Shown here: positions 5,841 to 59,871 of the stretch, one piece after another | How the letters are laid out: each line of letters starts with the position of its first letter | Numbering within the stretch: position 1 is the stretch's first letter | DNA from: Candidatus Magasanikiibacteriota bacterium | GTDB lineage: Bacteria; Patescibacteriota; Patescibacteriia; Magasanikbacterales; GWA2-37-8 | Direction of reading: 5' to 3' | Assembly: GCA_017991415.1 (NCBI GenBank) | Contig: JAGOQR010000001.1 | Location: 405,992 to 469,991, forward strand | DNA: 64,000 bases | Translations under genes and position numbers: made by a program | The notes under the pieces: model-generated | What the model was told of the DNA's origin: nothing | Seen by the model: the letters and a program-made list of their open reading frames with translations, nothing else | Database searches by the model: none

Positions 5841-5890
5841 AACCCTTCTACACACAAAAGGGGTTGGCGGGTTTTAAAGACTATATATAT

Positions 5891-7276: not shown

Positions 7277-7350
7277 TTTTATCTAAAATTAATCTCATCG
7301 GATCTATAATTAACTTAACCAACGGATTAAATCTTTTGCTCACTTCGAGT

Positions 7351-7887: not shown

Positions 7888-7905
7888 CCGAATACCACGC
7901 AAATC

Positions 7906-8985: not shown

Positions 8986-9083
8986 TACAACTCATAAACC
9001 TTGTATTGTTGACACTTCAAATTATTTATATTATCCTTAATTTTTAACAAACTACCTATTTAACACCTCTAATATTTTCTTTC

Positions 9084-26624: not shown

Positions 26625-29880
<3,256 letters not shown>

Positions 29881-34833: not shown

Positions 34834-35181
34834 TTATTTTGTAATCCTACTAAAAATAAAAGTGGCTATGCCATAAGCTGCAACCACCAAAATAAGGCCA
34901 ATTATAGCTGCAAACATTGCGTCCTTAGCTTTGGTAGCAAATTCCTCATTGCCACGAGCAGTCATCCAACGTAGACCTGCGTAAAACATAATGGCTAGAA
35001 ATATTATCCCTACAAAGGATAATATAATACTAATAAGACTGCCTATATAGGAGTAAATATCGGATTCACCATACTGAGCCTGACGGGCAGTTTCTTTTAG
35101 GCCAAATTGAGCTAAAACTGGAGCAGTCAGAATGAAACTAGATGCCACTAATGCTAGACAAAAAACAATCTTTTTTAACAT
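34834..35181 (-). CDS. VirB2/TrbC-like two-TM pilin-family small secreted membrane protein (outlier paralog)
   Basis: Signal peptide, then TM1-FYAGLRWMTARGNEE-loop-TM2 (IIGLILVVAAYGIATFIF): same architecture as the tandem array at 36.7-41.2 kb. Confidence 0.5.
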   Translation of the reverse strand: MLKKIVFCLALVASSFILTAPVLAQFGLKETARQAQYGESDIYSYIGSLISIILSFVGIIFLAIMFYAGLRWMTARGNEEFATKAKDAMFAAIIGLILVVAAYGIATFIFSRITK

Positions 35182-35601: not shown

Positions 35602-36672
35602 ATGCCACAAGCAAAAAAACTTCTTATTCTATCTTGCTCTACGGGTATGGGGCACTGGCGAGCAGGCGAAGCCTTGCGTCTTCATTGTGCCAATTTGTAC
35701 CCTGAGGTACAGGTTTCTCATATAGATATTGCAAAATACTTTAATATTTTTGCCTACCTCTATATCGTTTTTGGTTATAATTTTTTTTCAAAAATATTTC
35801 CTCTTGCCTACAAAATACTGTACTACCAGACAGATAATGCCTTTACAAAAAAATTCTTTGGACTAGTTGGACCAGCTCTTGCCCTAAGCTCTCGAAGACT
35901 TTTTGCATATATAAAAGAATACCAGCCGGACGTCATAATCTCTACTCATTTTTTACCGCATATTATTTTTCCTCGAGCTTTTTCTATCCCCCATTATACG
36001 GTTATAACCGACTACCATGCCCATGCAGTTTGGCAATCTCCTAAAACAAGCGGAACTTTTGTGGCCACAGAAGAAATAAAGAAGCATCTTCATAAAAATA
36101 ATATTGAGTCTATTGTAAGCGGCATCCCTATTGCCCCTGAATTTTTTGCAAAAAAAGATGTTGTTATAATAAAAAATAAGTTGGGAATTACAAATAATTG
36201 GCCAACAATTTTAATAATGCCTCTTTTTACTCGGTACAAAAAAATAGAAGATATTATAGCTCAAATACGATTGTTAAAAAAAGAAATAAATATTTTTGTA
36301 TTACCTGGTAAAAATACCAGCTTACTTAAACATATAGGCAAACTAGAAAAATATAATGTGCTCACCCCTACAGCCCATACCCCTATAGACGAACTGATGC
36401 GCTGTGCTGATATAATAATAAGCAAAGCTGGTGGACTAACTATCTCTGAAGTTATTTGCTTGCAAAAACCTTTAATCATAGCAGACTCTGTTCCTGGCCA
36501 AGAAGAGGATAATACAGTCTACCTTGAAAAAAATGGCTATGCACTTCACGCCACATCCGCTATAGACGTAACAAAAAAAATACAGATGATTCTTAACAAC
36601 CCCTCTTGTATACAAAAAAAATCTTACCCTGAATCTGGTAAGATAATTTTGGATAGTATATTCAAAAATTGA
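35602..36672 (+). CDS. MGDG-synthase/UgtP-like diacylglycerol glycosyltransferase (GT28 family)
   Basis: N-terminal LILSCSTGMGHWRAGEAL (G-G-G-H motif of the MGDG_synth N-domain), 356 aa. Confidence 0.6.
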   Translation: MPQAKKLLILSCSTGMGHWRAGEALRLHCANLYPEVQVSHIDIAKYFNIFAYLYIVFGYNFFSKIFPLAYKILYYQTDNAFTKKFFGLVGPALALSSRRLFAYIKEYQPDVIISTHFLPHIIFPRAFSIPHYTVITDYHAHAVWQSPKTSGTFVATEEIKKHLHKNNIESIVSGIPIAPEFFAKKDVVIIKNKLGITNNWPTILIMPLFTRYKKIEDIIAQIRLLKKEINIFVLPGKNTSLLKHIGKLEKYNVLTPTAHTPIDELMRCADIIISKAGGLTISEVICLQKPLIIADSVPGQEEDNTVYLEKNGYALHATSAIDVTKKIQMILNNPSCIQKKSYPESGKIILDSIFKN

Positions 36673-36677
36673 ACTAA

Positions 36678-37133
36678 CTACTGAAGACAACGCTCGACAT
36701 CTAAAGGATTTTGAATACAATATTCGCCTTCTGAACTACTCGTATCCTGCAGCACCACTTTCGAAACAAAATACGTTATTGAATATGCAGACAAAATAAC
36801 TGCTAAGCCTATTGCGCCATCATACAGCAATTTTTTTGCTTTACTTATTTGTTCATCATTCCCCGCTGCAGTCATCCATAAAAAACCAGCATATACGGTG
36901 AGCACTAAAAATATTGTTCCGACCACTCCCAAAATAGTTCGGATTATTTTTGCTGCAATCGTCCGAGGATCAGTAGCATCTCCCAAATTTGCCCCGCTTG
37001 CGCCCGCAGCCGCCCCCAACTGGCCAAATGCATCTTGGCGAAGAGAAGAGGTCGCTGCCCCAACTGTATCTACAAAAACAGCAGAGAGAAAAGCTGCCGC
37101 TACGAAATATAAAACTAGAATAATCTTACTCAT
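36678..37133 (-). CDS. VirB2/TrbC-like pilin paralog 1 (151 aa)
   Basis: Signal peptide; TM1 ...VYAGFLWMTAAGNDEQISKAK...; TM2 IGLAVILSAYSITYFV; short Cys-containing C-terminus. Confidence 0.55.
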   Translation of the reverse strand: MSKIILVLYFVAAAFLSAVFVDTVGAATSSLRQDAFGQLGAAAGASGANLGDATDPRTIAAKIIRTILGVVGTIFLVLTVYAGFLWMTAAGNDEQISKAKKLLYDGAIGLAVILSAYSITYFVSKVVLQDTSSSEGEYCIQNPLDVERCLQ

Positions 37134-37135
37134 AT

Positions 37136-37504
37136 TTAGGTCGTGACTTTAAAGATACTATCTAAGACAAAATACGTAATACTATAAGAAGCCAAAATAA
37201 TAACCAACCCAATTACAGCGGTCTTTAAGATTCCAAGAGCCTTCTCTACTTGCTCACTATTCCCTGCGGCAGTCATCCATAAAAAACCAGCATATACAGT
37301 AAGGCATAGAAAAACTGTACCCAAAAGACCGAGCACTATTCTTATAATTTTCCCCACAGTTTCTGATAAGGTAGAACTATCAACTTGACCATACCCACTT
37401 TTAGCAGCTATATCTTGAGAGAGGTCCGTTTGAGCTAAAGCAACTTTTGCTGGAACGAACAACAGATTAAGTCCTAGCAAAAAAATTAAAAAGTGTTTTT
37501 TCAT
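37136..37504 (-). CDS. VirB2/TrbC-like pilin paralog 2
   Basis: ATG at 37504 (MKKHFLIF signal peptide); VYAGFLWMTAAGNSEQVEKA; IGLVIILASYSITYFV. Confidence 0.55.
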   Translation of the reverse strand: MKKHFLIFLLGLNLLFVPAKVALAQTDLSQDIAAKSGYGQVDSSTLSETVGKIIRIVLGLLGTVFLCLTVYAGFLWMTAAGNSEQVEKALGILKTAVIGLVIILASYSITYFVLDSIFKVTT

Positions 37505-37512
37505 AAAAATAA

Positions 37513-38031
37513 TTAAGGACAATTTGAGGAACAAGATCCTGCCTCCCATAATGTATCCCCTGATAAATTACAATCAGCCTGCACCGTATTTGCCGCACAA
37601 ACACTAAAATCTGATTTAAAACAACAGCCAACTTGGGTAGAATTTTGATTAGGAGATCCTGTAGCTGTAGTCAGCTTGCTAGTAACAAAGTATGTAATCG
37701 CATAAGCAGACATTACGATTACGAGCCCTATTACTGTTGACTTAATCATGTTTAAGGCTTTATCTACCTGTTCACTATTTCCTCCTGCTGTCATCCATAA
37801 AATACCTGCGTAAATTGTCAGAACTAAAAATACCGTACCAACCAACGCCAAAATTGTTTTTATAACTGTAGCGATACTACTTGAAAGATCAGAAGAAACA
37901 CCGATTCTTTCTCCATTTTCTCCACCTATACCTTTTAATATTTTCCCAGCATCTTTTAAACCTTGAGCTGAAGCGGTCACCGCAAACACCATGGAACAAA
38001 CGGTTAGGGCAACTAAAAATATTTTTTTCAT
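37513..38031 (-). CDS. VirB2/TrbC-like pilin paralog 3 with a Cys-rich C-terminal tail
   Basis: ATG at 38031; IYAGILWMTAGGNSEQVDKA; tail ...STQVGCCFKSDFSVCAANTVQADCNLSGDTLWEAGSCSSNCP. Confidence 0.55.
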   Translation of the reverse strand: MKKIFLVALTVCSMVFAVTASAQGLKDAGKILKGIGGENGERIGVSSDLSSSIATVIKTILALVGTVFLVLTIYAGILWMTAGGNSEQVDKALNMIKSTVIGLVIVMSAYAITYFVTSKLTTATGSPNQNSTQVGCCFKSDFSVCAANTVQADCNLSGDTLWEAGSCSSNCP

Positions 38032-38077
38032 ATACAAAGGAGTAAGAGAGAAATTAAACTTTTTAATTCAAATAATA

Positions 38078-38698
38078 TTACGGACATGATCCAGCCACCC
38101 AGGTTCTTGTGGGGCCAGAACAAGCCTCTTCAAAGGTTGCTACGCTATTTCCAGTTGCAGAATTAGAGCAGCAGCCAAGCCCAGTTGTCGGACACGATCC
38201 AACCACCCATGTTCTTGTCTGACCAGAACAGTTTGCTTGAAGCGTTTGCACGCGATTTCCCGTCTCATAATTAGAACAGCAACCCATGTTTTCTGAAGAA
38301 TTACTACTTTGCGAACTGCTGATACTTGCTAGTCTACTAAAAACAAAAGTTGATATTGCATAGGCTGCCAAAACTATCACCAGCCCAATAGCCGCATGCT
38401 CTACTATACTTTTGGCTGAATCTACTCGCTCACTATTACCGAACGCGATCATCCACAAAAGGCCTGCGTACAAGATTAATATGAAAAATATTACCCCTAC
38501 AAAAGACAATACTATTGCAATTACCTTACCTATTAGCTCTGGCAATGCTGTACTTGAATCTACCGTAGAAGCACTACCAATTAATTGAGTACCACCTGCA
38601 GCATCTTGTAGACCAAAATTATCTGCAAACACAAAAGCAGGTGTTATCACGGTTAGAATTGCTATAAGGGACAAAATTACTTTTTTAAAAACTGTCAT
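38078..38698 (-). CDS. VirB2/TrbC-like pilin paralog 4 with a tandemly duplicated Cys-rich C-terminal module
   Basis: LYAGLLWMIAFGNSERVDSAK; C-terminus has two ~33-aa repeats GCCSN..TGN.V.T....CSG.TRTWV.GSCP (DNA repeat ~38100-38300). Confidence 0.55.
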   Translation of the reverse strand: MTVFKKVILSLIAILTVITPAFVFADNFGLQDAAGGTQLIGSASTVDSSTALPELIGKVIAIVLSFVGVIFFILILYAGLLWMIAFGNSERVDSAKSIVEHAAIGLVIVLAAYAISTFVFSRLASISSSQSSNSSENMGCCSNYETGNRVQTLQANCSGQTRTWVVGSCPTTGLGCCSNSATGNSVATFEEACSGPTRTWVAGSCP

Positions 38699-38894
38699 AA
38701 TTTTATATGATGCAAATTAATTTTGCCGTTCTAAATTAAATATAAAATCTTTTTTCTATTTAGATTCTGTATTTAATTTAAAAAAACAAACTATACCCTT
38801 TAGGTTACAGAGCAGGCGCGCTTGACTCTCATGAGATAAAGTAGGCCAAGCGCGCCAGGTACGAATATAATTCGGACAATTCTCTGCAAAATAA

Positions 38895-39275
38895 TTACGG
38901 TCCGGTTGTAGCTGAAACTAGACTGTTGATAACGTAGGTAGCTAAAGCGTAAGCGGATAAAATAATAGCTAAACCAATAATACCAGAGAAAATCCATTGT
39001 TTTGCTTCTCCAGTTTGTTCGTCATTTCCTCCTGCTGTCATCCATTTAAAACCACCGATAAGGATAATTACTACGGCAACGATACCAAGTAATCCCATGG
39101 CTGTTCTAATAATTCTAGCTATAGTTGTGCGAACATCTTGTCTTCCGAGACCAGTAGCATCACCATATTGGATACCAAGATCTTGAGAAGTTACCTGTTG
39201 AGCACCTGCCATTGCAGGAACTAGCAACACAGAAAGAACTCCCACTGTTGCTAAGATTTTTTTCAATTTCATCAT
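38895..39275 (-). CDS. VirB2/TrbC-like pilin paralog 5
   Basis: MMKLKK signal peptide; ILIGGFKWMTAGGNDEQTGEAK; IGLAIILSAYALATYV. Confidence 0.55.
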   Translation of the reverse strand: MMKLKKILATVGVLSVLLVPAMAGAQQVTSQDLGIQYGDATGLGRQDVRTTIARIIRTAMGLLGIVAVVIILIGGFKWMTAGGNDEQTGEAKQWIFSGIIGLAIILSAYALATYVINSLVSATTGP

Positions 39276-39382
39276 ATTGTCACCCCCTTTCTATAAAGAA
39301 AATAGATCATAATACGCGTACATAACTTACTTAGTATATCACACTGTTGTGCCAAATCCCAACAATTTATTCCCAGTTGCCC

Positions 39383-39829
39383 TTAGGTTAAAAAACCTAA
39401 GAAAGTAGACAAAAGCACATAGCTGGCAAGCACTAAAACAACCCCGATTACTGCCCAAACCATTGTCTGAGTACCTGCTTCTACCTTTTCTGGATTCCCC
39501 GCTGAAGTTAGCCATTGGAAACCACCCCATACAAACATAACGAGGGTGAGCGCTCCAATTACCCCTAACGCAGCTCGAATTATTGTATTAATAAGATCAG
39601 AAACTTCGGTAGTTCCTGTCTGGCCTACTCCAATTGGATTTTCCAAATAACAAATTTCTTGACCCTGACTATTTGGCCTACAATTTGATCGGGACTCGTC
39701 TGAGGCAGATTGTCCAGTTACGCTATCTGTAAAAACATCAAATATGCCCGCATGAGCATATAGAGGTGTACTAAATAACCCCCACATAAACACCAAGCTT
39801 GTAATGCTAATTGTAAATACCTTTTTCAT
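39383..39829 (-). CDS. VirB2/TrbC-like pilin paralog 6
   Basis: FVWGGFQWLTSAGNPEKVEAG; VIGVVLVLASYVLLSTFL; Cys pairs in the N-terminal ectodomain. Confidence 0.5.
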   Translation of the reverse strand: MKKVFTISITSLVFMWGLFSTPLYAHAGIFDVFTDSVTGQSASDESRSNCRPNSQGQEICYLENPIGVGQTGTTEVSDLINTIIRAALGVIGALTLVMFVWGGFQWLTSAGNPEKVEAGTQTMVWAVIGVVLVLASYVLLSTFLGFLT

Positions 39830-39830
39830 C

Positions 39831-40790
39831 TTAAGTTGGGATAGAGTTAAATAAAAAGCTTACTAAGATATAGCTAAACAACATAACGGCTACACCCAAT
39901 GTGGTCCATACTAAAATCTTTTTAGCCTTATCTACTTGCTCGCTTGCACCACGTGCTGTCATCCACAACAAACCAGCAACGACATATAACACTAGAGTAA
40001 TCGAACCAATAAAAGCCATTAAACCGTTAATAGCTTTTTTAATAAACTGAGTAGGAGTATTAATTCCTGCTGGATTTAGATTTTCTGAAGCCATAAGTAG
40101 CAATTCGTTGGCAGAACGACCACGATTAATAGTTTCATCTTGCTCCGAAGAGGCGCATGGACCACGGAAAATGTCTACCTTGCTCGCTTCATTCAAATTT
40201 TTAGCACATAAATTTCTGGCCTGAGCAATCGCATCTGCTTCATTTCCACTCTGGAATTCTCGACAGTCCCCCGCATTATACTTATGTGACGGATCAGTTC
40301 CTGGATCACTAATCACCACACAACGATACGTGGAGCAAGCACCCGCGGCAGAACAATCCCCAGTATATGTAGGGCACAAGCTACGCAACAACTCCCCTTC
40401 ACAACCTGAATCATTGTAGTCATCAACAAAAATATTTTTGCACTGTGTGGCCTGCTTACATCCATATCTTTTTAAATTGGTGCAGGATTTATTAAACAAA
40501 TTGCCATCACACAAAAAAACAGCTTGAAAATATCCAGCGACACTCACATCTTTGCATTCATCATTTTTAACACAACCATATAATTCACAAGGGTCATGGC
40601 TAAAGTCTCCACTTCTTGCAGCACACTGTGCTTGCGCAGAGATTACATAATCTGTTTCGATATTTTCACAACCAGTGTCAAACGAGCAACCATACTTTGA
40701 TGCCACTACATTTTGGTTTGGAAACAAAAATAAACCAAAAACAAACATGATAATAATCGGTTTAATATTTTTCTTTTTTAGAAAAAACAT
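39831..40790 (-). CDS. VirB2/TrbC-like pilin paralog 7 fused to a ~230-aa Cys-rich N-terminal ectodomain (319 aa)
   Basis: Signal peptide, an ectodomain with >25 Cys (CxxC/CK/CD repeats), then VVAGLLWMTARGASEQVDKAKK and LGVAVMLFSYILVSFLF. Confidence 0.55.
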   Translation of the reverse strand: MFFLKKKNIKPIIIMFVFGLFLFPNQNVVASKYGCSFDTGCENIETDYVISAQAQCAARSGDFSHDPCELYGCVKNDECKDVSVAGYFQAVFLCDGNLFNKSCTNLKRYGCKQATQCKNIFVDDYNDSGCEGELLRSLCPTYTGDCSAAGACSTYRCVVISDPGTDPSHKYNAGDCREFQSGNEADAIAQARNLCAKNLNEASKVDIFRGPCASSEQDETINRGRSANELLLMASENLNPAGINTPTQFIKKAINGLMAFIGSITLVLYVVAGLLWMTARGASEQVDKAKKILVWTTLGVAVMLFSYILVSFLFNSIPT

Positions 40791-40795
40791 ACTAT

Positions 40796-41221
40796 TTAAT
40801 TTGCCTTAAGCTCATAAACACTCTTGAGCCCTACGGTAGTCCCTAAGAATCTCACTAACATATAGGCTCCAAAAACAACAATAAGACCAATAATGGCCGC
40901 CGAAATAATTTCTATACCTTTTTTTGTTTGTTCAGAATTACCACGAGATAAAATCATGGTAAACCCTCCATAAATAAAGAAAAGTAGCGCCAAAGCTCCA
41001 ACAATACCAAATAGATAATTAACAACATTAAAAAGTAAGATAATATAGATACTTACACTACGGCACTCTCCTTCGTCTGCAGGATCACCAGTAGGAGGGT
41101 TCAGAACACAATCAGGAATAAATTTACTGGTAGCAGTACTTTGAGCGAGCGCCTGCCCAACATTAACAAAGGCCGAAATGGATAGCAGAAAAATAAATAA
41201 TAATTTTGTTACTCTAGACAT
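40796..41221 (-). CDS. VirB2/TrbC-like pilin paralog 8
   Basis: ATG at 41221 (MSRVTKLLFIF); IYGGFTMILSRGNSEQTKKG; IIGLIVVFGAYMLVRFL. Confidence 0.5.
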   Translation of the reverse strand: MSRVTKLLFIFLLSISAFVNVGQALAQSTATSKFIPDCVLNPPTGDPADEGECRSVSIYIILLFNVVNYLFGIVGALALLFFIYGGFTMILSRGNSEQTKKGIEIISAAIIGLIVVFGAYMLVRFLGTTVGLKSVYELKAN

Positions 41222-41248
41222 AGTTATATCTTTAGGCCGCACAAAAAA

Positions 41249-42625
41249 CTACAGCGTTTGGTTTATTTTTGAGGCAGCCCGATTTAGAACTTCTTTTTTC
41301 CATTGCATTTCTTGTCCAACTTGCGGTGGTTCTAAAAGCCATTCATGAACCATATCTCCCATAGCTTTTACGGTGGTGTCGTAATCTTTTCCTTTATACC
41401 AACTATCTGCAATTAAAACCTGGGAGACAAATGGATAGAGCTCAGTATTATCTAATTGACCTGCAATATAGGCACGCAACGCTGATGGTCGAGCTGACTG
41501 ATCAAGATACTCTTTGGTCGCTTTGGAGTGAGCCAAAAAATTGAGTAGGCCCCATGCTTCGTTTTTATGTTTTGATTTATCAGTAACCGTTTGTACCCAA
41601 TAATTAGCAACATTAATTGGCTGCTCGGGATTAAGTTGTAGCATCGGTAAAACTGAAACATTAAGCTGCGGAGCACGAGCTTTAATTACTGGGTAGTGAT
41701 AGCTATACCCGAAAAAGAACGCAAGTGACCCGCTAATAAATTTATCAAGAGCAACACCTGCTTCTTCATTCCAAGCATAAGTATCACGAGCAGAATTGGC
41801 AAAATCCGTATAAAAATTCATTACAGATATAGCTGGGTTGATCGTTTCGTTATTATCTGAACCAAAACTAACTGCACCATTTTTATTTATAAAATTAACA
41901 CCGCTTTGCTTAAACAAAATATATAAAATATCTTCAAAACCAGCCACATTATTGCCTGTCCCCAAAGCTGTTCCTGATTGCAAAATCTTACCAGAGTTTT
42001 TTTCAAATTTGGTTAATTTTTTTACATGGGCAGAAAAATCATCCCAATTTTTTGGGGGTTCCGCAATGCCTGCTCTATCGAGCAAGTCCTTGTTATAAAA
42101 AAGAGCCATGTTTTCCAGAGAGAGAGGAAGACCATAAATTTTATCGTCAATAATGACATCATTTTTTACAGCTTGCACGTATTCTTTTTCAACTTGAGCT
42201 ACTGTTGGTAAATTTTGATTAGACCCTGTTACAATAGTTTTTGATCCGAGTGTCGTTTTCTCAGTACGCACCGTTGTATCAGAGACACTTGCTGGCATAG
42301 CAGACAATTTTGGCTTGTAGAAATTCATCCAACGATTGCGCACCGAGATAATATCTGGGCCACGGTCTTCGGCAAGAGCCTCTAGAAGTCGAGGGTATAT
42401 TTCATCTGCTCGAAGCTGTTTTAAATTAATGGTTAAATATGGCCTCTCAGATTTATATTTATCTATCTGCACTTGCAGCGCGTCGACATCATCAAAGACA
42501 GTCCAGAATTCTAAAGTCACTGGCTGAGTGGCTGTTACTTCTTCTTTTGACAAACCTTTACAACCTAAACCAGTTAGCGGTAGCAGAACCACTAACAAAA
42601 ATAAAATAAAAAAACTTTTTTTCAT
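41249..42625 (-). CDS. extracellular solute-binding lipoprotein (ABC-transporter SBP family 1), orphan
   Basis: Lipoprotein signal MKKSFFILFLLVVLLPLTGLGC; SBP_bac_1-like length and composition; no permease or ATPase adjacent. Confidence 0.65.
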   Translation of the reverse strand: MKKSFFILFLLVVLLPLTGLGCKGLSKEEVTATQPVTLEFWTVFDDVDALQVQIDKYKSERPYLTINLKQLRADEIYPRLLEALAEDRGPDIISVRNRWMNFYKPKLSAMPASVSDTTVRTEKTTLGSKTIVTGSNQNLPTVAQVEKEYVQAVKNDVIIDDKIYGLPLSLENMALFYNKDLLDRAGIAEPPKNWDDFSAHVKKLTKFEKNSGKILQSGTALGTGNNVAGFEDILYILFKQSGVNFINKNGAVSFGSDNNETINPAISVMNFYTDFANSARDTYAWNEEAGVALDKFISGSLAFFFGYSYHYPVIKARAPQLNVSVLPMLQLNPEQPINVANYWVQTVTDKSKHKNEAWGLLNFLAHSKATKEYLDQSARPSALRAYIAGQLDNTELYPFVSQVLIADSWYKGKDYDTTVKAMGDMVHEWLLEPPQVGQEMQWKKEVLNRAASKINQTL

Positions 42626-43610: not shown

Positions 43611-45035
43611 CTATTTTACTACCTCCCAACTTAACAAGTTGTACTCTGACCCAACAGGAAAGCCAGGTGGCGGACCATAGGTAAGATTATTGTCATAAGT
43701 ATACGATTGGGTTGGATAACCTGATACCACTGTACTTCCTGACAACCACGAAACACCCCCGACTTTATATAAAATTCTTGAACCATACACATTGAGAGTT
43801 GTTTTTACAGGCCCACCAAATGACGAGTAATTATACCTTTTAAATGTTCCGTTCTGAGAAAGTAACGCCGCATCTATATTTAAAGTATTAGGACTACTAT
43901 ACGGAAGAAAAATATTTTGATCAGCAATAAGCCCTAAGGTATTAGTACCATCTTTAGCTAAATATGTTAAATCACCGTGAATCACCATGAATTTTCCAGC
44001 TCCTCCCCCTACTGTCACCCTACCTTTTAAAATACCATAAACCCACACATTATCTTCAACAAAAACATAGCTGCTGGTAGGAATGGGGTACGTTGTAACC
44101 GCACCGAAGGTTGCCGCATCAAGACAAGGTGCTGGACTAACCGTAAAAGCTACGCCAGTATCAGGGTTCACATCTCTTGCTGAGCGAGTAGTGCAAGTTA
44201 AAACTTTAGAAACTCTAACAGTCCCATCATTTACAAATTGCAGCCGCCACCCCAAATTACCTGACGATGATAAATAAGGCCAATTTCCACCCCCTTCAGC
44301 TAATGCTGAAGATCTTATCTCAGCCAATTTTGCAGTTACAGCGGTAAAATCTTTGGCGGGCACTGGATATTGCCAGTACCCAACAGGACCACCCCCACCC
44401 CAAACGCCCTGCTTATTAGGAATAGAGCTCCCACAATGAATAGTAGGGCATGTATAGGTGGCCATAGCACTCATAATAGGCGCATTCGCTGTACCTTCAA
44501 ATCTGATACCGCCATTTGCTTGAACTTTCCCAGTTGAAGGTCCTGTAAGATACAAGTTTGCGTTTTGCAAAACTGCAAAGTCTGCGAGTGACGGAAATCC
44601 TACTCGCGCTTTAATAACACGCGTACTATTTGGCTGATTATTAAGCGAGCCAGTTGACTCAATCGTAACAACCGTTGAGCCCGTAGAAGGTGGTGTTATA
44701 ACTAAAGAAAACTGCCCAATGACATTTCCATCTTTATTTTTATATTCATGTACATACGGCCCAGGCGTACTCGTACCATTGCCGTCGTAATAATCTGTTT
44801 TGTCGTGTGCTAAATGCCAACGATAATAATTTATACCAGCGTCTGCAATTTGCAAGGCCATTTCAGTATTGTGTTTTTTATTAGAAGCAGAATTTTCTGA
44901 GACTGCATAGCCTGTTAGGGCTGTAACAATTACAGTGAAACTAATCGTACCAAAAATCATAACAACCAAAAGAATATTCCCATGTCTATTTTGAAAAAAT
45001 AATTTAGTCAAACTTTTAATACGATCTAACAACAT
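43611..45035 (-). CDS. PilX-N-domain-like pilus-associated protein (474 aa)
   Basis: N-terminal TM ...GNILLVVMIFGTISFTVIVTAL... then TEMALQIADAGINYY (PilX_N-like); a G/T/S-rich beta-rich remainder. Confidence 0.45.
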   Translation of the reverse strand: MLLDRIKSLTKLFFQNRHGNILLVVMIFGTISFTVIVTALTGYAVSENSASNKKHNTEMALQIADAGINYYRWHLAHDKTDYYDGNGTSTPGPYVHEYKNKDGNVIGQFSLVITPPSTGSTVVTIESTGSLNNQPNSTRVIKARVGFPSLADFAVLQNANLYLTGPSTGKVQANGGIRFEGTANAPIMSAMATYTCPTIHCGSSIPNKQGVWGGGGPVGYWQYPVPAKDFTAVTAKLAEIRSSALAEGGGNWPYLSSSGNLGWRLQFVNDGTVRVSKVLTCTTRSARDVNPDTGVAFTVSPAPCLDAATFGAVTTYPIPTSSYVFVEDNVWVYGILKGRVTVGGGAGKFMVIHGDLTYLAKDGTNTLGLIADQNIFLPYSSPNTLNIDAALLSQNGTFKRYNYSSFGGPVKTTLNVYGSRILYKVGGVSWLSGSTVVSGYPTQSYTYDNNLTYGPPPGFPVGSEYNLLSWEVVK

Positions 45036-45083
45036 ACTTTTAAAGTGGGTTAAATGCTGGACACAGAACCATTTTTTAAAAAA

Positions 45084-45701
45084 TTAATTATCCTTAAGAT
45101 TTCGCAACATAACCTTTGATTCAATATAAAATGGTACTGGCGAAGCATTTGGATCCTCCTCTAAAACCAACGAAACACCAACTACTCTAATCTGGGTCAC
45201 AGTAACTGGACTAGAAAGCGGAGACTCAGCTCCCGTATAAGTACTATCGTAATAAAGAAACGGAGGGGTGGAAGTGATCAGGTCGTGAGCTACGTCAACC
45301 ACTACCTCGTTAGCTGAGCTATACACAAGTGGATTACCCGTTGGTTTTATTACTCCTTTTTTTAAAGTTCTGCCTGATAAAAAATACCGCACCCTCTCTA
45401 CTAAATTATCTGTATCAAGATTGCTATAAAAAACTATTGCCGTACTTGAAGCCGATTCAATTGGATAAGCACCAATACTAGAAATCGAAGCAATTCGGAG
45501 TTCGTTTACAAAATCTCTAGTGACCTTACGTCCTTCATTTTGAGTTTTTAATTGTTCCCAAACTATTTTATTATATTTCCAACTGGTCAAAAAAAGAGAG
45601 GTTATTCCTACTACCAAAAAAGAAAATATACCTATAGATACAAGAACTTCTACCAGAGTAATGCCGTGATTATTATTTTTTAAGTCTTTCAAAAAAAACA
45701 T
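45084..45701 (-). CDS. type IV pilin-like protein (prepilin-type N-terminal cleavage/methylation domain)
   Basis: NHGITLVEVLVSIGIFSFLVVG class III signal with E+5; ATG at 45701. Confidence 0.6.
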   Translation of the reverse strand: MFFLKDLKNNNHGITLVEVLVSIGIFSFLVVGITSLFLTSWKYNKIVWEQLKTQNEGRKVTRDFVNELRIASISSIGAYPIESASSTAIVFYSNLDTDNLVERVRYFLSGRTLKKGVIKPTGNPLVYSSANEVVVDVAHDLITSTPPFLYYDSTYTGAESPLSSPVTVTQIRVVGVSLVLEEDPNASPVPFYIESKVMLRNLKDN

Positions 45702-45709
45702 ATTCAAAT

Positions 45710-47500
45710 TTATGGAGACATTTCAACTACAACTTCTCCTCTACCAGCTACATCTACCACTTCACTACTAGCAGTATACCCGGAATGAGAAACATTTAAA
45801 GTATATGTTGTAGCCGACAAACCAGTAAATAATTCTTGCCCGGGCGGGATGCAACTCGTAATATACGTAAAGGCGATTTCAGAAAGAGTGGGTGTAAAAG
45901 AAGTGTCGTCGGTATTTAAATATGCTTTATATCTCAAATACCTTTTCCCATTATGCCCGCTCCAAATAAGGGTACTAGTGGAGGTGTAATAGGTGCTGGA
46001 AGCACCATCTGGCCCATAAAAGTCCCACTGGCTAGGGGTGCTAGAATTGCTTGAAGCTAACTGAAACATGATAGGATTGACACCAGCCTCTGGCGGCTGC
46101 GAAAGAGGAGAGAAAATAATATTATTAAAGTTTGCTTCTACCCCCAAATCTATGGTCGAAGACTCTAGCCAACCACTATTTAAATACGTACTACCAATTT
46201 TTCTTAACTTAAAATCTCCGTCTGGTGAATTATTTTCAACATTACCATTATCATTAAAATATTTTGTAGTATTAGAATACTCAACTTGACCGCCGCCACC
46301 ACTCCAATCTGTCTGGCGCACAAAACCATAACCGGTTATCCTAGTTTCATCATAACCGCTGGCTGTAAGACTCACTGTAGCGTCAGAAAGAGGTAGTCCA
46401 GTGCCAGCATCTTTAACTTTAACTAACAACGAATGAGCTGAATAAGGAGCTAATATAACAGAAACGTCTTGCGTTAAACCGGGTGTTAAATCTATCGGCA
46501 ACATCGGCGTTGAACCACCAACAAGATAAGTGGTACCGGAAACAGAAATATGATACTTATCCCATTCAAAATTCGCAAAAGTATAATTGCCACTACTGTT
46601 AGCGTTTAAATTTCTATTATACTTATAGACATCTGGGCTTATGCCGATCTTTTTTTCACCGTAAATATTAAAGGGCGTATTCGCGACAGCAGAGCAAGCA
46701 GGGGTAAGAAAATGCAGATCCATATTACTTAACCGATCAATAGAAAAACTAATATCGGTTACAGTTTGGCTGGTTACATTAGCGGGCGGTTTTACTGGGG
46801 TAGATACCTCAGCCCCTACAGGCACTGTGTAATCTGCAGAGTATCCAGCCTTACTCACATTAATACTATAACTAAGAGTACCCGTAGGGGTATCTATAAT
46901 CCGTAAATAACCGTCATTATCCGTGACATCATTTATGACCAAAGCTGGTGTTTGTGCAGTACTGGTAATTGAAATATTTGCGCCTGAAACTGGCAGGCCA
47001 TTGGAATCAAAAACTTGAATAAAAAGCGCCCCGTTTTGAGTAGCACCTTCTAGCTGTTTTGGAGACACAATAGTACTTAGGGTTATTGGTTTTTGTTGAG
47101 AACACTGGTTACAAATAACAGACATCTCTACTAATTTAAAATCGGCAGGAGAAGTATCGTTGGGAGTACCGCCGAGAGTGCCGTCAAAAGGATCGTCTAT
47201 ATTTCTTATCGTAGTAATAATAATAAAAGTTTGGCCATTGCGCACTGTCGTGGTGGAATAAGGTAAAATTCCACTCGGAATACCATTCACAATCCCAACA
47301 CTATCATAAGGCAAATTACGTACTACCTCCAAACGCTCAGCTAAAAGAGCTGTTTGCAAAATAGACATACGTGATTGATATACCACCTTGAAAATTAAGT
47401 TAATACCACTATAAACCCCCAAGGCAAATAATAAAAAAATGGCGCTGGCTATCAAAATTTCCAGGAGTGAAAAACCTTTTTGGTTTAATTTGGATTTCAT
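45710..47500 (-). CDS. large type IV pilin-like protein (596 aa) with Ig/CarboxypepD_reg-like beta domains
   Basis: QKGFSLLEILIASAIFLLFALGVY prepilin motif; repeated beta-sandwich-like segments. Confidence 0.6.
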   Translation of the reverse strand: MKSKLNQKGFSLLEILIASAIFLLFALGVYSGINLIFKVVYQSRMSILQTALLAERLEVVRNLPYDSVGIVNGIPSGILPYSTTTVRNGQTFIIITTIRNIDDPFDGTLGGTPNDTSPADFKLVEMSVICNQCSQQKPITLSTIVSPKQLEGATQNGALFIQVFDSNGLPVSGANISITSTAQTPALVINDVTDNDGYLRIIDTPTGTLSYSINVSKAGYSADYTVPVGAEVSTPVKPPANVTSQTVTDISFSIDRLSNMDLHFLTPACSAVANTPFNIYGEKKIGISPDVYKYNRNLNANSSGNYTFANFEWDKYHISVSGTTYLVGGSTPMLPIDLTPGLTQDVSVILAPYSAHSLLVKVKDAGTGLPLSDATVSLTASGYDETRITGYGFVRQTDWSGGGGQVEYSNTTKYFNDNGNVENNSPDGDFKLRKIGSTYLNSGWLESSTIDLGVEANFNNIIFSPLSQPPEAGVNPIMFQLASSNSSTPSQWDFYGPDGASSTYYTSTSTLIWSGHNGKRYLRYKAYLNTDDTSFTPTLSEIAFTYITSCIPPGQELFTGLSATTYTLNVSHSGYTASSEVVDVAGRGEVVVEMSP

Positions 47501-55324: not shown

Positions 55325-57067
55325 TTATTTTAATCCTTTTTCTATTTGACCCACTTCTTTATTAATGAACTTTTCAGCCGCATTGAGCTGGTTTTTGAGC
55401 TGAGACAAAATTTTAGCCTCTTCTTTTGTTAGCTCTCTTTTTAACCGTACCCTTTCTAGGGTTGAAACTTGTTTACGAGTACTTTCTCGTAACTCATCAA
55501 AGGCCGTATGCACATTTTTTTCTACGACCTCCACCTCTGTCCTGACTTTATTTTTTAACATTCTAAACTTGTGCCAAATATAAAGAACTAGTACTAGTAA
55601 CAAAATAACCAAGCCTAACAAAGCAATAACGAGGGTCGCGTACCCTATTACCAAAGAACCTATTCTAAACAGTGCTCTTTGTGTGCTCGTAATAATAATT
55701 TTTTCACTCGGATTACTCTTTGCTCCTTTTTCATTTTGCGCTCGAGCCCAAACGGAATATTCTCCTTCTGCCAATCGTTTTTCAAAGATAAATTTAAAAT
55801 TTCCATTTTCGTCCGACTTCACAGACTGAGATACGGCTTCAGCGCCATCTTTTTGAAGATAAAAAGTAATAGTAACATCAGGGTAACTGTTACCTAATAC
55901 AACTAAATTCTGACCAACAAACAGCTCTTGGGGATACTCTACAAGATTAGGAGAATCTATTGGATTTACGGTAAGCTCAAGTGAAGAAGTAAGATAGTTA
56001 CCAGCTTTATCGATAGCTTTGGCAACAACCGTATGCATACCTGGATCCAAAGGTTCTGTTCTAAAAATATGACCCCCTTCATCAAACCAAATCGTAGGCA
56101 ACCCATTGTCTATTACAATTTCGTATTTACCTATTTCCGAACCGCCATCCCGAGCTTTCATATACAGCTGCGCAACAGGGTCAAGAGAGTTTATTGGCTC
56201 TGACAAAGACATGTCAAAAAAATCTGGCTTTTGCGTATCTATCTGAAATTGATAGTGCGTAACTGGACCCCAACCAGAAGAGTTTCTTACACGAATATGA
56301 AAATACCAGCTTCCCTCTTCTACATCTGAATACGTGTACGAACTCATAACCCCGTCAGATTTAGTTCCAGGGTTAGTGTTGGGGTTATGGTCTCCCAAAA
56401 TACTTACCCCCGTAGTGCCTGGTGGTAAAATCCAGGAAAATTTTGGGTCATTACCTGCACACCAGCCGTCTGGTGGCGGACAATTTATTGAGCTAACTTT
56501 AGGAGCATTTGGAATAGTGTTTACTTCTGGCGGTGATACCACATCGTCATTTATAGATCCTGGATCTGTAAGAACAAAATTAGCCGATCCTAACCCTTTT
56601 AAAATATTAGTGCCATTTCCATCGTTGGCCAAAACCGAACCAGAAGACAATCTAATTGTTGCTTGACCTGCCGCTTTAGCCTTTAGCGTGACAGTGATTA
56701 TTTTTCCTGCCGAACCAGTGTACCCAGGATTTAAGACAACACCTTCAAAGTTAACACTGCCCGCACTAAAAGAAGGCTCCTGCGCCCATAAAGAAAAAAT
56801 TGACCCAGATTTTGAAACAGACACCACCTCCAATTTATCAGTAGGAATATCAAGCTCTCCCGATGCAGCGTTCATAGACTGGTCTGAAGCAGAAACAAAA
56901 ATTGATATAGAAAAATTTTTACCAACCTGCTTGGTGCCAGAATCTGGCGAAAAATAAAGAGTAGCTGCTCGCGTATGTGATCCAATAAAAAAAAGTACAA
57001 AAAAAGACAAAAAATATATTGTCTTTTTTACAAATCCTAAAATTATTTTTTTATTTTTCTCTTCCAT
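55325..57067 (-). CDS. cohesin-like-domain surface protein with a C-terminal TM anchor and coiled-coil tail
   Basis: ATG at 57067 preceded by GGAGG; signal peptide; ...SGELDIPTDKLEVVSV...GKIITVTLKAKAAGQATIRL beta-sandwich (cohesin-like, inference); TM IGYATLVIALLGLVILLLVLVLYIW. Confidence 0.45.
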   Translation of the reverse strand: MEEKNKKIILGFVKKTIYFLSFFVLFFIGSHTRAATLYFSPDSGTKQVGKNFSISIFVSASDQSMNAASGELDIPTDKLEVVSVSKSGSIFSLWAQEPSFSAGSVNFEGVVLNPGYTGSAGKIITVTLKAKAAGQATIRLSSGSVLANDGNGTNILKGLGSANFVLTDPGSINDDVVSPPEVNTIPNAPKVSSINCPPPDGWCAGNDPKFSWILPPGTTGVSILGDHNPNTNPGTKSDGVMSSYTYSDVEEGSWYFHIRVRNSSGWGPVTHYQFQIDTQKPDFFDMSLSEPINSLDPVAQLYMKARDGGSEIGKYEIVIDNGLPTIWFDEGGHIFRTEPLDPGMHTVVAKAIDKAGNYLTSSLELTVNPIDSPNLVEYPQELFVGQNLVVLGNSYPDVTITFYLQKDGAEAVSQSVKSDENGNFKFIFEKRLAEGEYSVWARAQNEKGAKSNPSEKIIITSTQRALFRIGSLVIGYATLVIALLGLVILLLVLVLYIWHKFRMLKNKVRTEVEVVEKNVHTAFDELRESTRKQVSTLERVRLKRELTKEEAKILSQLKNQLNAAEKFINKEVGQIEKGLK

Positions 57068-57954
57068 AGGAAGCCTCCTAAACACAGAAGTAATAATACG
57101 ATTATTATACACCAAAACCAAATATTTTGATACAGTTTTTGCTGAGAAAGAGGTGACACAATAGAAATAATTTCATTACCAGCTTTATCTATAGCTTTAA
57201 TATATACAAAACTGCGTCGATCTTGATCCAAAAGAACTTCTGGATTTTGTGCAGCACGCCACTGTAGTTTTGTATAATCAGATATTTGCTGCCCCGCTTG
57301 TTCGGCTATTTCATAGTGGCTTATGCCTGATTTTTTATCCTGGGTATAAAAAACAGCTACCCATTTATTTTTATCTAGACTTTCATTTTTTATAACCTCA
57401 ACAAATAATGGCTCTGGTTTTTCTGTATCGAACAGAGCAGGCAAAGGAGGTATCGAAACGCCACGCAAAACTACAATAGTAGCGGGTGTAAAAGTTGTCT
57501 CAGCTTTAGTGCCCTGACCATCACTTATTAGAGCCGCCAAACTATCACTCACCCTAATAACTCCCTCCCCTTCTTTTGTTGCAGAAAACACCAAAGAAAA
57601 AATCTTTCCTTGCTCACCTTGACTATTATAGCCACCAGGGGTAATGCCAGCAAAATCTACTACCCCGGCAGTATTTCCTTGTGCTGGATTTTTAACCCAC
57701 AAGGCCACAACCGAATCTGCACTCCTAATTTCTTTTAAAGAAAAAATAGTGCTATCAAATACAACCGAGCCCTCGATAGCATTTATATTTTCCATTTTTG
57801 TATCGAGGAGAAAATCTACTTGAAATTCTTGACCTGGACCAACCTTGGCTGGAGAATCAAAAGAAAAATTAGCTGCAAAAACAGGATTGGCTAAAAATCC
57901 AAAACTAATTACTGTAGAGACAAAAAATATACTTATTACTGTTATTATTTTCAT
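57043..57954 (-). CDS. cohesin-like-domain surface protein with a C-terminal TM
   Basis: Signal peptide; QEFQVDFLLDTKMENINAIEGSVVFD...GKIFSLVFSATKEGEGVIRV; C-terminal TM WFWCIIIVLLLLCLGGFLW. Confidence 0.45.
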   Translation of the reverse strand: MKIITVISIFFVSTVISFGFLANPVFAANFSFDSPAKVGPGQEFQVDFLLDTKMENINAIEGSVVFDSTIFSLKEIRSADSVVALWVKNPAQGNTAGVVDFAGITPGGYNSQGEQGKIFSLVFSATKEGEGVIRVSDSLAALISDGQGTKAETTFTPATIVVLRGVSIPPLPALFDTEKPEPLFVEVIKNESLDKNKWVAVFYTQDKKSGISHYEIAEQAGQQISDYTKLQWRAAQNPEVLLDQDRRSFVYIKAIDKAGNEIISIVSPLSQQKLYQNIWFWCIIIVLLLLCLGGFLWKRKIKK

Positions 57955-57986
57955 AACTAATTATCTATAGTACACACTTTTTCCAA

Positions 57987-59297
57987 CTAACCTGTCCAAT
58001 AATATGCAATGATACTCATATCCACCAGATCAACCTTACCATCGCCATTTAGCCTTTCTACTTCAATTGATTTAAATGATTCGCTGATAGAACGCTTATA
58101 CCAATAGGCAGCAATGGAAAAGTCGATTAAATTTACCTTACCATCTTTATTCAAATCCCCTTTTAAAAATTTTGTTTCTGTTTTTGTTATATTTTTATCA
58201 CCCACACTAAAACCTACAACTTTACCAAAACTACTAATCTCGTTACTTACCGCTGCTTTGGATTTAGTAGAGTGTTCACCAAGCTCAAGCACAGTTGTAT
58301 CAAAATTATACAAATAAGCGCCACCTGTATCACTTTTAGTTTTTGCAAAAATTTCATTTTCTGAATTTACCACAATGGTAACATCGGCGTTAGGACTACT
58401 TTGACCAAAAATAGCAATATTATCGCCTTTTTTTACCTGACTCTTATCCACATTAATAGTTGGCGCTATAAAAATACCACTCACATTTGTGGTTGCTCCA
58501 GCGGTTACCCCAACCGGAAAACTGAGGAGACTAGAACGATTACTTTGACTATCTTCACTATATAAAGAAAAGATATAATTACCCCCAGATAATCCAGATA
58601 ATGTTATCTGAAAGTTGGCATCTGCCCCAGCTACAGTAGTGGCTGCCACTTGTGCATCTTTGAGGAGCGTAATAGTACTCCTTGGATATGCACGACCAGA
58701 AAAAATTACTGTTGTTTGTGGAACAGAAGGAACTCCGCCAACCCCTCCTCCACCTGCACCCCCACCTGTTTCAGCTGGAGCTGTAGGGAGCGCCGAAACT
58801 TGACTAGAAGTAACAACTGCATCTCCAAAAAAATCTAAGGCTCTTACCACAAAATAATAGGTAGTGCCATTGGCAAGCCCAGAAGCGGTATTTGCCAAAA
58901 CAGCACCCACATTTGTAAAAGTGTAAGGTCCGCCAGAGACGGTAGAGCGACCAACAGAATACCCGCTAATCGTAAACCCTAAAGAACCTACGGCAGATGT
59001 CCAACCAAGAGAAACTTGCGCATTTCCAGCTGTAGCCGAGATAATGGGCGTAGTTACAGAAGGAAAATAAAAAAAACCAGCCCGACTGATAAAGGCGCTG
59101 CTGGAATTTTCTCCGATAATAATTTGTCCTGAACCACTAAACAATTGAAAGTTGGTGGAGGTCGATTTTGCTCCACTCACACTTACAACCGGATTGGAAT
59201 CCACAAAATTAGTCGAACTGAATTCTTGAGCTAAAACAACGGTCGCTATAAACGAGCAGAGTAAAATTAAAAATGTGACTAGTTTTCTTGTAGCCAT
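57987..59297 (-). CDS. secreted FN3-like/Gly-rich protein with a C-terminal type I dockerin
   Basis: Two calcium-binding repeats DLNKDGKVNLIDFSIAA and RLNGDGKVDLVDMSIIA; signal peptide. Confidence 0.6.
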   Translation of the reverse strand: MATRKLVTFLILLCSFIATVVLAQEFSSTNFVDSNPVVSVSGAKSTSTNFQLFSGSGQIIIGENSSSAFISRAGFFYFPSVTTPIISATAGNAQVSLGWTSAVGSLGFTISGYSVGRSTVSGGPYTFTNVGAVLANTASGLANGTTYYFVVRALDFFGDAVVTSSQVSALPTAPAETGGGAGGGGVGGVPSVPQTTVIFSGRAYPRSTITLLKDAQVAATTVAGADANFQITLSGLSGGNYIFSLYSEDSQSNRSSLLSFPVGVTAGATTNVSGIFIAPTINVDKSQVKKGDNIAIFGQSSPNADVTIVVNSENEIFAKTKSDTGGAYLYNFDTTVLELGEHSTKSKAAVSNEISSFGKVVGFSVGDKNITKTETKFLKGDLNKDGKVNLIDFSIAAYWYKRSISESFKSIEVERLNGDGKVDLVDMSIIAYYWTG

Positions 59298-59329
59298 AAT
59301 TTTTCCTACAGCTTACCGACCGAAACTAA

Positions 59330-59731
59330 CTACTGCTCTGTTGGAGTTGGGGTAGGTGCTGGAGTTGGACTACCGATTACCAAAGGAGCTATTTCAATAA
59401 TTTTATTCTCAGTTGGGCGATACATAATAGCTTTTAGGGCTGTGGTGTAGATTAACACTTTATCCCCAGTGGCAGCTTTGGCAAAAAATGTTTGTTCTGC
59501 TTTGAGCTTGTCTGGATCGGTAACCGTGGCGATAGTCGGCGCCTCTCCTTCAGGAAGGAGAACTAATTTTCCAACTGCATCAATTATTTTTTGATTTTCT
59601 TCTTGCGCGACTTCTTGCGGACTAACTTTTAACTTTCGATTTTGACTATAAAACATAAAGCTGGTACCGGCGAGTATAAGAACCAAAACTCCTAATACCA
59701 CAGAAACTAGTTTTAAATTATTTGTTGGCAT
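59330..59731 (-). CDS. hypothetical membrane-anchored protein with a Pro/Thr-rich tail
   Basis: N-terminal TM, C-terminal PTPAPTPTPT. Confidence 0.4.
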   Translation of the reverse strand: MPTNNLKLVSVVLGVLVLILAGTSFMFYSQNRKLKVSPQEVAQEENQKIIDAVGKLVLLPEGEAPTIATVTDPDKLKAEQTFFAKAATGDKVLIYTTALKAIMYRPTENKIIEIAPLVIGSPTPAPTPTPTEQ

Positions 59732-59871
59732 ATATTAATAAATATAATAAATGTAATGTTACTTATTAGATGAAAGCAATTACTTTCTTTTTGCGACCTT
59801 TAATTTAAAAAGATAAAACTTTTGCTAAATTATACCACATTCTTTATTTAAGAGTAAATAAGATTGCCAAT

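Follow-up and report, generated by a model that had tools for sequence, protein, structure and literature searches.

The window analyzed here is a 64,000-nucleotide stretch of the chromosome of a Candidatus Magasanikbacteria metagenome-assembled genome (MAG; 831,086-bp contig). It contains an array of nine pilin-like genes, p1 to p9, of which eight are consecutive on the minus strand (36678..41242) and the ninth lies apart at 34834..35181. Profile comparisons identify the nine products as members of family PF18895 (T4SS_pilin) and as remote homologs of VirB2/TrbC, and patterns of orthology and substitution indicate that the array is a conserved gene set of fixed order, not a hypervariable repertoire. 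With modest confidence, we lean toward the reading that the products are Sec-exported hairpin subunits, assembled by a distantly encoded type IV secretion system (T4SS) into a filament or conduit at the cell surface through which a host cell is contacted, with p5 as the core subunit and the others specialized. An earlier note on this DNA, made from its letters and open reading frames (ORFs) and called here the sequence-only reading, had described eight tandem genes of 126-319 amino acids (aa) plus a ninth copy. The ORF listing bore out their number, positions and strand, and the lengths are correct for the longest ORFs of the eight. The genes, with their scores against PF18895 and other profiles, are as follows.

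p1: 36678..37133, minus strand; 151 aa; PF18895 33.8 bits.
p2: 37136..37504, minus strand; 122 aa from the ATG at MKKHF, with the longest ORF reaching to 37549; PF18895 39.3 bits.
p3: 37513..38031, minus strand; about 172 aa from the ATG at MKKIF; PF18895 38.3 bits.
p4: 38078..38698, minus strand; 206 aa; PF18895 29.6 bits.
p5: 38895..39275, minus strand; 126 aa, no cysteine; PF18895 46.7 bits, PF04956 26.2 bits.
p6: 39383..39829, minus strand; 148 aa; PF18895 52.9 bits, NCBIfam NF045849 40.1 bits.
p7: 39831..40790, minus strand; 319 aa; PF18895 21.6 bits (below the gathering score), core model 94 bits.
p8: 40796..41221, minus strand; 141 aa from the ATG, with a GTG-initiated ORF reaching to 41242; PF18895 43.2 bits.
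p9: 34834..35181, minus strand; 115 aa, the detached ninth paralog; PF18895 34.3 bits, core model 93.5 bits.

All nine proteins have the same layout: a signal peptide, an outside segment, a first transmembrane segment (TM1), a short WMTAxGNxEQ loop and a second transmembrane segment (TM2). Alignment with MAFFT gave a core of about 66 residues that comprises TM1, the loop W-M-T-A-x-G-N-x-E-Q and TM2 with IGLxxxLxAY. The cores of the paralogs are 29-64% identical, and the outside segments do not align. Hydropathy analysis predicted a hydrophobic N-terminal leader with an AxA-type site and two transmembrane segments in every copy, so the shared architecture proposed in the sequence-only reading holds throughout. 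The motif it had given for the end of TM1 and the loop was roughly right, but most copies have [YV]AG where it had placed GG, and p7 and p8 deviate (the loop of p8 reads MILSRGNSEQ). A hidden Markov model (HMM) made from the nine cores, the core model of the list, recovered exactly nine ORFs from a six-frame translation of the window, at 87-105 bits; the next best match scored only 6.7 bits, which places this set of ORFs far beyond chance. All nine genes are intact and have their own start codons, and there is no pseudogene or silent-cassette structure. Probable ATG starts shorten p2 (37504), p3 (38031) and p8 (41221), in partial agreement with gene calls on identical contigs. The 122-aa start of p2 is the one chosen by the gene callers on those contigs. 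The start of p3 is uncertain, the alternatives being a TTG at 38037 (ORF 37513..38037) and gene-caller starts that give 159 aa.

Cysteines outside the leader and TM1 were found only in the N- and C-terminal segments, which are predicted to be extracytoplasmic, and always in even numbers. In VirB2 both termini face outward, and the placement and parity of the cysteines fit that topology. There are no outside cysteines in p2, p5 and p9. In p1, the C-terminal outside tail has two conserved cysteines (YCxxNPLDxxxC) and is kept in relatives L007/L008. The C terminus of p3 has a six-cysteine module (GCC…C…C…W.AGSC), and the N-terminal outside segment of p6 has two cysteines (CxPNSQGQEIC); both are conserved in orthologs. 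Two conserved cysteines are also present in the N-terminal outside segment of p8, the first gene of the array. The tail of p4 contains two four-cysteine modules, encoded at 38084..38173 and 38192..38281, and its orthologs in L007/L008 have a different four-cysteine module. A word-indexed homolog search with this tail returned a single near-identical protein and no others. The largest outside part is the N-terminal domain of p7, with about 200 residues and 18 cysteines arranged as four four-cysteine repeats (YGC-x5-C-x12-14-C-x8-11-C) and one extra cysteine pair. An AlphaFold2 (AF2) model of p7 had repeated units of a beta-hairpin plus a helix, with predicted local distance difference test (pLDDT) values of 83-88 over residues 31-100. 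A Foldseek search of the PDB with this model returned no meaningful match to the cysteine-rich domain, and a weak Pfam match of p7 to CVNH (E 0.13) was treated as noise.

The assignment of the array to a pilin family was based on several profile comparisons. PF18895 (gathering score 26.6 bits) matched all nine proteins, eight of them above the gathering score (29.6-52.9 bits); p7 was below it, and its orthologs carry PF18895. The TrbC/VirB2 family PF04956 (gathering score 27.9 bits) matched p5 at 26.2 bits (E 9.5e-6), p6 at 20.5 bits and p9 at 19.1 bits, with E-values of about 1e-5 to 1e-3, and gave no match or 13 bits for the remaining paralogs. These scores substantiate the proposal of the sequence-only reading that the genes encode VirB2/TrbC-like pilins. 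For all nine proteins the best NCBIfam match was NF045849 (E 2e-10 to 0.03), with p6 at the curated cut-off (40.1 versus 40 bits) and the other eight at 13.8-36.8 bits. We also compared the family with six authentic VirB2/TrbC genes from plasmids of mating-pair formation class T (MPF_T), each located between virB1 and virB3. In a profile-profile alignment (hhalign), the whole hairpin aligned in register over 63 columns (E 1.7e-4, probability 49%). For p5, the AF2 model consists of two helices (48-80 and 85-123) that form a hairpin, and the mean pLDDT was 95-97 per 10-residue block over residues 61-110. A Foldseek search of the PDB with this model recovered generic helical hairpins (best E 0.7), including the archaeal conjugation pilin of A. 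pernix (8dfu) at E 3.6, and was uninformative because the fold is so simple. A tblastn search of 72,556 plasmids with p5 found no match, which means that p5 has no close relative among those plasmids. The family is very large, since a profile search of the full library gave 82,619 cluster representatives at E ≤ 1e-3.

Small two-TM proteins with leaders could in principle be secreted or membrane-active peptides of a bacteriocin, holin or immunity type that resemble pilins only in hydrophobic composition, and there were weak, chance-level matches to holin or colicin V families. We regard this as highly improbable. The specific profile matches are well above noise, and the loop motif is common to more than 80,000 family representatives. 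There are no adjacent genes for processing, export or immunity, and the set, which lies among chromosomal housekeeping genes, is deeply conserved.

Pfam scans of all ORFs with 110 aa or more found no VirB4, VirD4, VirB6-like or other T4SS component in the 64 kb, and a hydropathy screen found no polytopic protein among the unannotated ORFs. On this point the sequence-only reading was right, but it had presented the absence as an anomaly, and the related genomes do not support that view. Table S1 of PMC12102498 gives "Presence of VirB4: Yes" for five relatives with arrays (L022, L040, L054, L056 and L063), none of which has a T4SS-type ATPase within 10 kb of its array; the genome of the window is absent from the tables of that paper. 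In the same survey, a pilin gene is reported near virB4 in 1135 of the 1948 VirB4-positive assemblies that have pilins. Because array-bearing relatives are VirB4-positive and published pilins are often located away from virB4, the lack of a T4SS nearby is not anomalous; arrays of this lineage are normally detached, and the detachment is no evidence against a role with a T4SS.

We scanned related species using one genome per species, which gave 80 loci, mostly from Magasanikbacteria and Uhrbacteria MAGs. A T4SS-type ATPase was located within 10 kb in one of the 80 (L067, a Magasanikbacteria MAG). In that locus (4800..10342), an 851-aa ATPase is followed by dnaX, a gene for a Peptidase_C39_2 protein and a single p5-like pilin gene. 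The pilin gene adjoins the C39-like peptidase gene and is 2.5 kb from the ATPase gene, whose product matches TrwB_AAD_bind, T4SS-DNA_transf and DUF87 (TrwB/VirD4-type). This pilin locus is linked to a T4SS gene and is distinct from the big array.

The order of the array is conserved between species. In a related species with 88% identical PNPase, contigs had the identical order of a solute-binding protein gene, p8-p7-p6-p5-p4-p3-p2-p1, a glycosyltransferase gene on the opposite strand, p9, S15, NYN and PNPase, and the array order is shared with L007-L012 and L093. Across the 80 loci, the fetched stretch contained at least five pilin genes in 72 and at least eight in 50, and the longest tandem run was 12 genes. 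When each gene was assigned to its best-matching paralog of the window, the order p8-p7-p6-p5-p4-p3-p2-p1-p9 was exact in six species, and most of the others had this backbone with local duplications (p5-p5, p3-p3). Copy number ranged from 5 to 12 across species through local duplication. The features peculiar to individual paralogs were also kept between species, including the cysteine modules of p1, p3, p6 and p8 and the 18-cysteine domain of p7. Between the detached p9 and the array are the opposite-strand glycosyltransferase gene and two tRNA genes; relatives have an ortholog of p9 in the corresponding position.

To estimate selection, we compared the window (lineage A) with L093 (lineage C), for which synonymous divergence (dS) is unsaturated (0.16-0.83). 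The ratio of nonsynonymous to synonymous divergence (dN/dS) was 0.03-0.12 for the nine pilin genes and 0.017-0.04 for flanking housekeeping genes. In p1-p7, the ratio was 0.04-0.20 in the outside parts and 0.00-0.065 in the TM cores, with p5 having no amino acid change in either. The fastest-evolving member was p4 (0.116 overall, 0.196 in the tail). In terms of protein change, most paralogs outpace PNPase by a factor of 3-6. We found no gene conversion between paralogs; DNA repeats were only 60-74% identical, and with so little similarity between paralogs there is no sign of recent conversion. The content and order of the array are identical in lineages A and C, in a further lineage, B, described below, and in more distant species. 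Taken as sequence evidence, these results indicate that the differences between paralogs are ancient and not ongoing.

These data bear on the proposal of the sequence-only reading that the family is a hyper-diversified repertoire for surface variation. In the form considered here, the pilins would be interchangeable and would be expressed one at a time, or swapped, for evasion or for matching to different hosts. Several observations are in its favor: the paralogs are very divergent (29-64% in the core) with unrelated outside segments, most outpace PNPase by the factor given above, their number changes by local duplication, the tail module of p4 differs among relatives, and the array block has moved between lineages. 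The analogy with the tandem VirB2 genes of Bartonella and Anaplasma, as an antigenic-variation system, has been put forward in PMC12102498, and the resemblance to Bartonella and Anaplasma phagocytophilum is real insofar as there are several divergent copies in tandem in a host-dependent bacterium. Unlike that model, the paralogs here are positional one-to-one orthologs in fixed order that keep their specific features, purifying selection is strong, and there are neither gene-conversion tracts nor silent cassettes, all copies being intact. The sequence-only reading had suggested comparing dN/dS between ectodomain and TM core as a check, and the outcome went against its proposal, with no elevated signal in the outside parts. 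In addition, the pilin subunits of Southlakia are reported as essential (PMC10633639), which would be unexpected if they were fully redundant. It therefore seems quite unlikely that the array is such a repertoire. For the branch of Magasanikbacteria and Uhrbacteria, the data suggest instead a multi-subunit set of fixed order that is under purifying selection and includes one member of high conservation. This argues against the antigenic-variation analogy as currently offered.

The array has also been shared between lineages as a block:

Near-identical block: 36120..41042, strand not applicable; 0-4 mismatches between lineage A (the window) and lineage B, with flanks 80-93% identical.

The block is about 4.9 kb long and contains p1-p7 together with the 3' parts of p8 and of the glycosyltransferase gene. 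Lineage B consists of contigs from at least four other samples (L001, L002, L005 and L006). Outside the block, dS between A and B was 0.36 for PNPase and 0.70 for the solute-binding protein gene, and lineage C (L093) was 79-96% identical over the same block. This pattern indicates that lineages A and B have recently exchanged the array as one block through homologous recombination. Since exact identity of p7 was the criterion by which the contigs were retrieved, they are not a frequency sample. We rejected an assembly chimera as the main explanation, since each configuration was present in more than one independent sample (L003/L004; L001/L002/L005/L006).

Two kinds of unusual proteins in the wider family indicate how the hairpin can be used. 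Among the top family matches there were single chains of 4-14 pilin hairpins joined by short linkers, without internal leaders (P0168-P0173, P0176, P0180, P0184, P0191, P0192, P0199, P0226 and P0308). P0168, for example, has 820 aa with eight units, linkers of 20-50 aa and no internal signal peptides. These fusions suggest that different hairpins work side by side, a hint of co-assembly. There were also giant proteins of 1,878-4,158 aa (P0278, P0281, P0288, P0293, P0295, P0301, P0303, P0315 and P0316) in which the first ~130 residues are a complete p5-like pilin with leader, TM1, a WMTAGGNDE loop and TM2. In P0278, the one giant sequence inspected, the pilin part is followed by a cysteine-rich extracellular mass. 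The hairpin can therefore act as an N-terminal anchor or display module.

Both kinds of proteins count in favor of a reading in which the hairpin would be a membrane-resident scaffold, that is, a two-TM anchor that oligomerizes in the membrane and presents small or large outside domains at the cell surface, with or without a T4SS. The array is also unlinked to T4SS genes here and in 79 of the 80 related loci, and it sits behind a solute-binding protein gene. We consider a scaffold of this kind unlikely, given the homology to true pilins and the location of the Saccharimonadia pilin series inside a T4SS cluster, as described in PMC10633639. With both termini facing outward, fusions could also be accommodated in a filament lattice, and direct evidence for a membrane oligomer is lacking.

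Returning to the filament or conduit, the steps we envisage are as follows. Export by Sec and cleavage of the signal peptide would leave membrane-embedded hairpins whose two ends both face outward. From there, a T4SS with genes at another genomic location would extract and polymerize them into a surface filament or conduit, which would serve contact with the host cell. The cysteine-free and highly conserved p5 would be the main building block, and the other paralogs would be specialized minor or adaptor subunits on the filament surface, with p1, p3, p4, p6 and p8 displaying small disulfide-bonded modules and p7 a larger repeat domain.

Several points weigh against this reading. There is no T4SS gene in the 64 kb; the link to a T4SS comes from relatives and the literature. 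The matches to PF04956, although significant, are all below the gathering score, and the hhalign probability against VirB2/TrbC was only 49%. A fold search cannot separate the p5 hairpin from any other helical hairpin, and the family profile had no match among PDB sequences at E-values up to 10. The fusions and the giants (to ~4,000 aa) are awkward for a classical pilus of extracted subunits and fit a membrane-resident role equally well. The choice of p5 as major pilin draws on just conservation and gene spacing. Finally, no pilus has been seen in any Patescibacterium, according to the review PMC12857230, which calls one a possibility.

The case for p5 comes from its conservation and from the layout of the array. 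It is the most conserved and most TrbC-like paralog, with orthologs 62-93% identical across many MAGs. Relative to a more distant species, p5 was 93% identical with dN 0.053 (PNPase 0.078), and the other paralogs were 52-74% identical. Intergenic gaps are 1-8 nt in p8-p7-p6 and in p3-p2-p1 and 40 nt between p4 and p3, and p5 is isolated by spacers of 107 nt and 196 nt. A strong Shine-Dalgarno sequence (GGGGGTG) belongs to p5, and its gene is followed by an inverted repeat:

Stem-loop: 38815..38856, minus strand; GC-rich with a 12-bp stem, about 40 nt past the p5 stop codon and followed by a T-run.

The predicted RNA fold of 38780..38900 (minus strand) has an energy of -37.4 kcal/mol (z = -3.7). 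The stem-loop is possibly a terminator or an mRNA-stabilizing hairpin, which would make p5 a unit of its own. When the stretch after p5 from six genomes was analyzed with RNAalifold, neither a consensus nor covariation support emerged, because the inverted repeats that the relatives have there do not align. Given this layout (spacers, Shine-Dalgarno sequence and stem-loop) together with its conservation, p5 is the best candidate for a major or abundant subunit. A separate observation is that dS of p5 between lineages A and C was 0.16, compared with 0.5-0.8 for its neighbors; either high expression, by constraining codon usage, or a separate recombination event could account for the difference.

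Upstream of the array is a co-directional gene:

Solute-binding protein gene: 41249..42625, minus strand; PF13416/PF01547, directly upstream of p8.

The gap to p8 is 6 nt when measured to the longest p8 ORF and 27 nt to the preferred ATG at 41221. This gene is in the same position in L001-L012 and L093 and is probably co-transcribed with the array.

A stronger version of the filament proposal is that the nine genes are the parts list of one heteromeric filament, with a p5 core and eight specialized subunits that each bear a disulfide-bonded module of their own, and that p1-p7 form a "specificity cassette" that can be swapped as a block between diverged lineages through homologous recombination. 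We put this forward tentatively and regard it as doubtful. If true, a monoderm would have a host-recognition organelle that is modular and exchangeable and is based on a VirB2 scaffold, unlike single-pilin conjugative pili and unlike antigenic-variation families. For structural and expression work, the locus itself gives the predictions that p5 is the major subunit, that the cysteine modules are exposed at the surface and that the subunits hetero-assemble.

Tandem pilin arrays are an already described hallmark of ultrasmall Patescibacteria, and the array in the window is one more example. The sequence-only reading had treated it as new, and the products MBP6859432/34 (locus tags KBC69_02330/02340) are annotated "hypothetical protein", but arrays of this kind are a published feature of Patescibacteria (PMC12102498, PMC10633639, PMC12857230). 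The organism is indeed one with a small genome, as the reading had supposed, a Patescibacterium, and Magasanikbacteria are placed in GTDB class ABY1 in Table S1 of PMC12102498. In that survey, Quiñonero-Coronel et al. 2025 (Microb Genom) report a search of 3,035 Patescibacteria genomes with PF18895 and PF04956 that yielded 441 VirB2 arrays in 383 assemblies; the arrays had 2-11 genes each, and identity averaged 25% and did not exceed 54%. An array is defined there as at least two PF18895/PF04956 genes in tandem or with one non-pilin gene between them. By this definition the genes in the window form an array, eight being in tandem and the ninth lying past one protein-coding gene and two tRNA genes, and their core identity of 29-64% corresponds to the high divergence of the published arrays.

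The likeness to the published Patescibacterial arrays extends to the two families, the phylum, the tandem arrangement, the low identity between paralogs and the lack of a relaxase or coupling protein nearby. In the window the tandem arrangement has one non-pilin interruption, and the identity values (29-64%) cover the core only, the published ones being a mean of 25% and a maximum of 54%. The related loci contain up to 12 tandem genes versus the maximum of 11 in the published survey. Three features seen here are not part of the array descriptions consulted in the published accounts: a constant gene order among positional orthologs, cysteine modules particular to each paralog, and exchange of the block between lineages. 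Newness is limited to such lineage-specific details, and the locus does not represent a new class of system.

Other published cases provide a functional context. In Southlakia epibionticum ML1, a predicted pilin series in the T4SS cluster is reported as essential by Wang et al. 2023 (Cell, PMC10633639), and this series is also treated in the review PMC12857230. Apart from type IV pili, T4SS genes and their pilin series are the only surface machinery of Patescibacteria on which epibiotic growth has been shown to depend, in Southlakia. The "Sec secreted array" of Nanosynbacter lyticus TM7x is a further case cited in those papers. Unlike the Southlakia series, which is inside its T4SS cluster, the array here is at least 22 kb from any T4SS gene.

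The canonical VirB2/TrbC proteins of MPF_T systems (A. tumefaciens VirB2; PF04956) are alike in having a signal peptide, a two-helix hairpin, a short loop and a similar size, with profile-level similarity over the whole hairpin. In the six plasmid loci there is one pilin gene between virB1 and virB3, whereas here there are nine genes without T4SS neighbors. They further differ from our array in that the organism here is of a monoderm type, several members have predicted disulfide-rich outside modules, and scores are below the PF04956 threshold. The best NCBIfam match, NF045849 (the Mbov_0395/MMCAP2_0565 family, a pilin-like conjugal transfer protein of mycoplasma integrative and conjugative elements [ICEs]), belongs to wall-less monoderms whose ICEs carry a T4SS of class MPF_FATA, the class from which the Patescibacterial T4SS is said to derive. 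That family is named as an ICE conjugal-transfer component, in contrast to the nine-gene chromosomal array here, in which eight of the nine proteins are below its cut-off; a literature search on the function of its type proteins found nothing useful. Gram-positive-type T4SS classes are stated in PMC12102498 to lack virB2 homologues. The NF045849 match hints that the MPF_FATA lineage may already possess a pilin-like hairpin.

The rest of the window is ordinary chromosome. It contains genes for ThrRS, EngA, Pth, DprA, TopA, NusB, RNase III, GlmS, FBA, PNPase, S15, class II ribonucleotide reductase and RuvB, eight tRNA genes, type IV pilin-like genes and genes for large surface proteins. A sigma-70 promoter scan was uninformative (28 sites versus 26.7 expected). 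There were 16 terminator-like sites versus 6.4 expected, the majority of them inside genes.

Three other regions were of note. Two type IV pilin-like genes with the N_methyl motif (207 and 596 aa) and an adjoining gene for a 474-aa single-TM protein are located at 43611..47500 (minus strand). They are the fastest-evolving surface genes of the window, with 60-76% aa identity between close lineages in which PNPase is 99% identical, and they evolve much faster than the VirB2-like array. A co-directional series of genes for large predicted surface proteins occupies 55325..63987 (minus strand), encoding a Big_13/Big_1 protein (598 aa), a protein with Big_6 and dockerin (436 aa) and a third with LVIVD and a glycine-rich domain (>1,371 aa) that runs past the end of the window. 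The 23S rRNA gene (26636..29861), which is adjoined by the 5S gene and whose 16S counterpart is not in the window, contains a group I intron (Rfam RF00028, 51.3 bits) at 27564..27773 on the minus strand.

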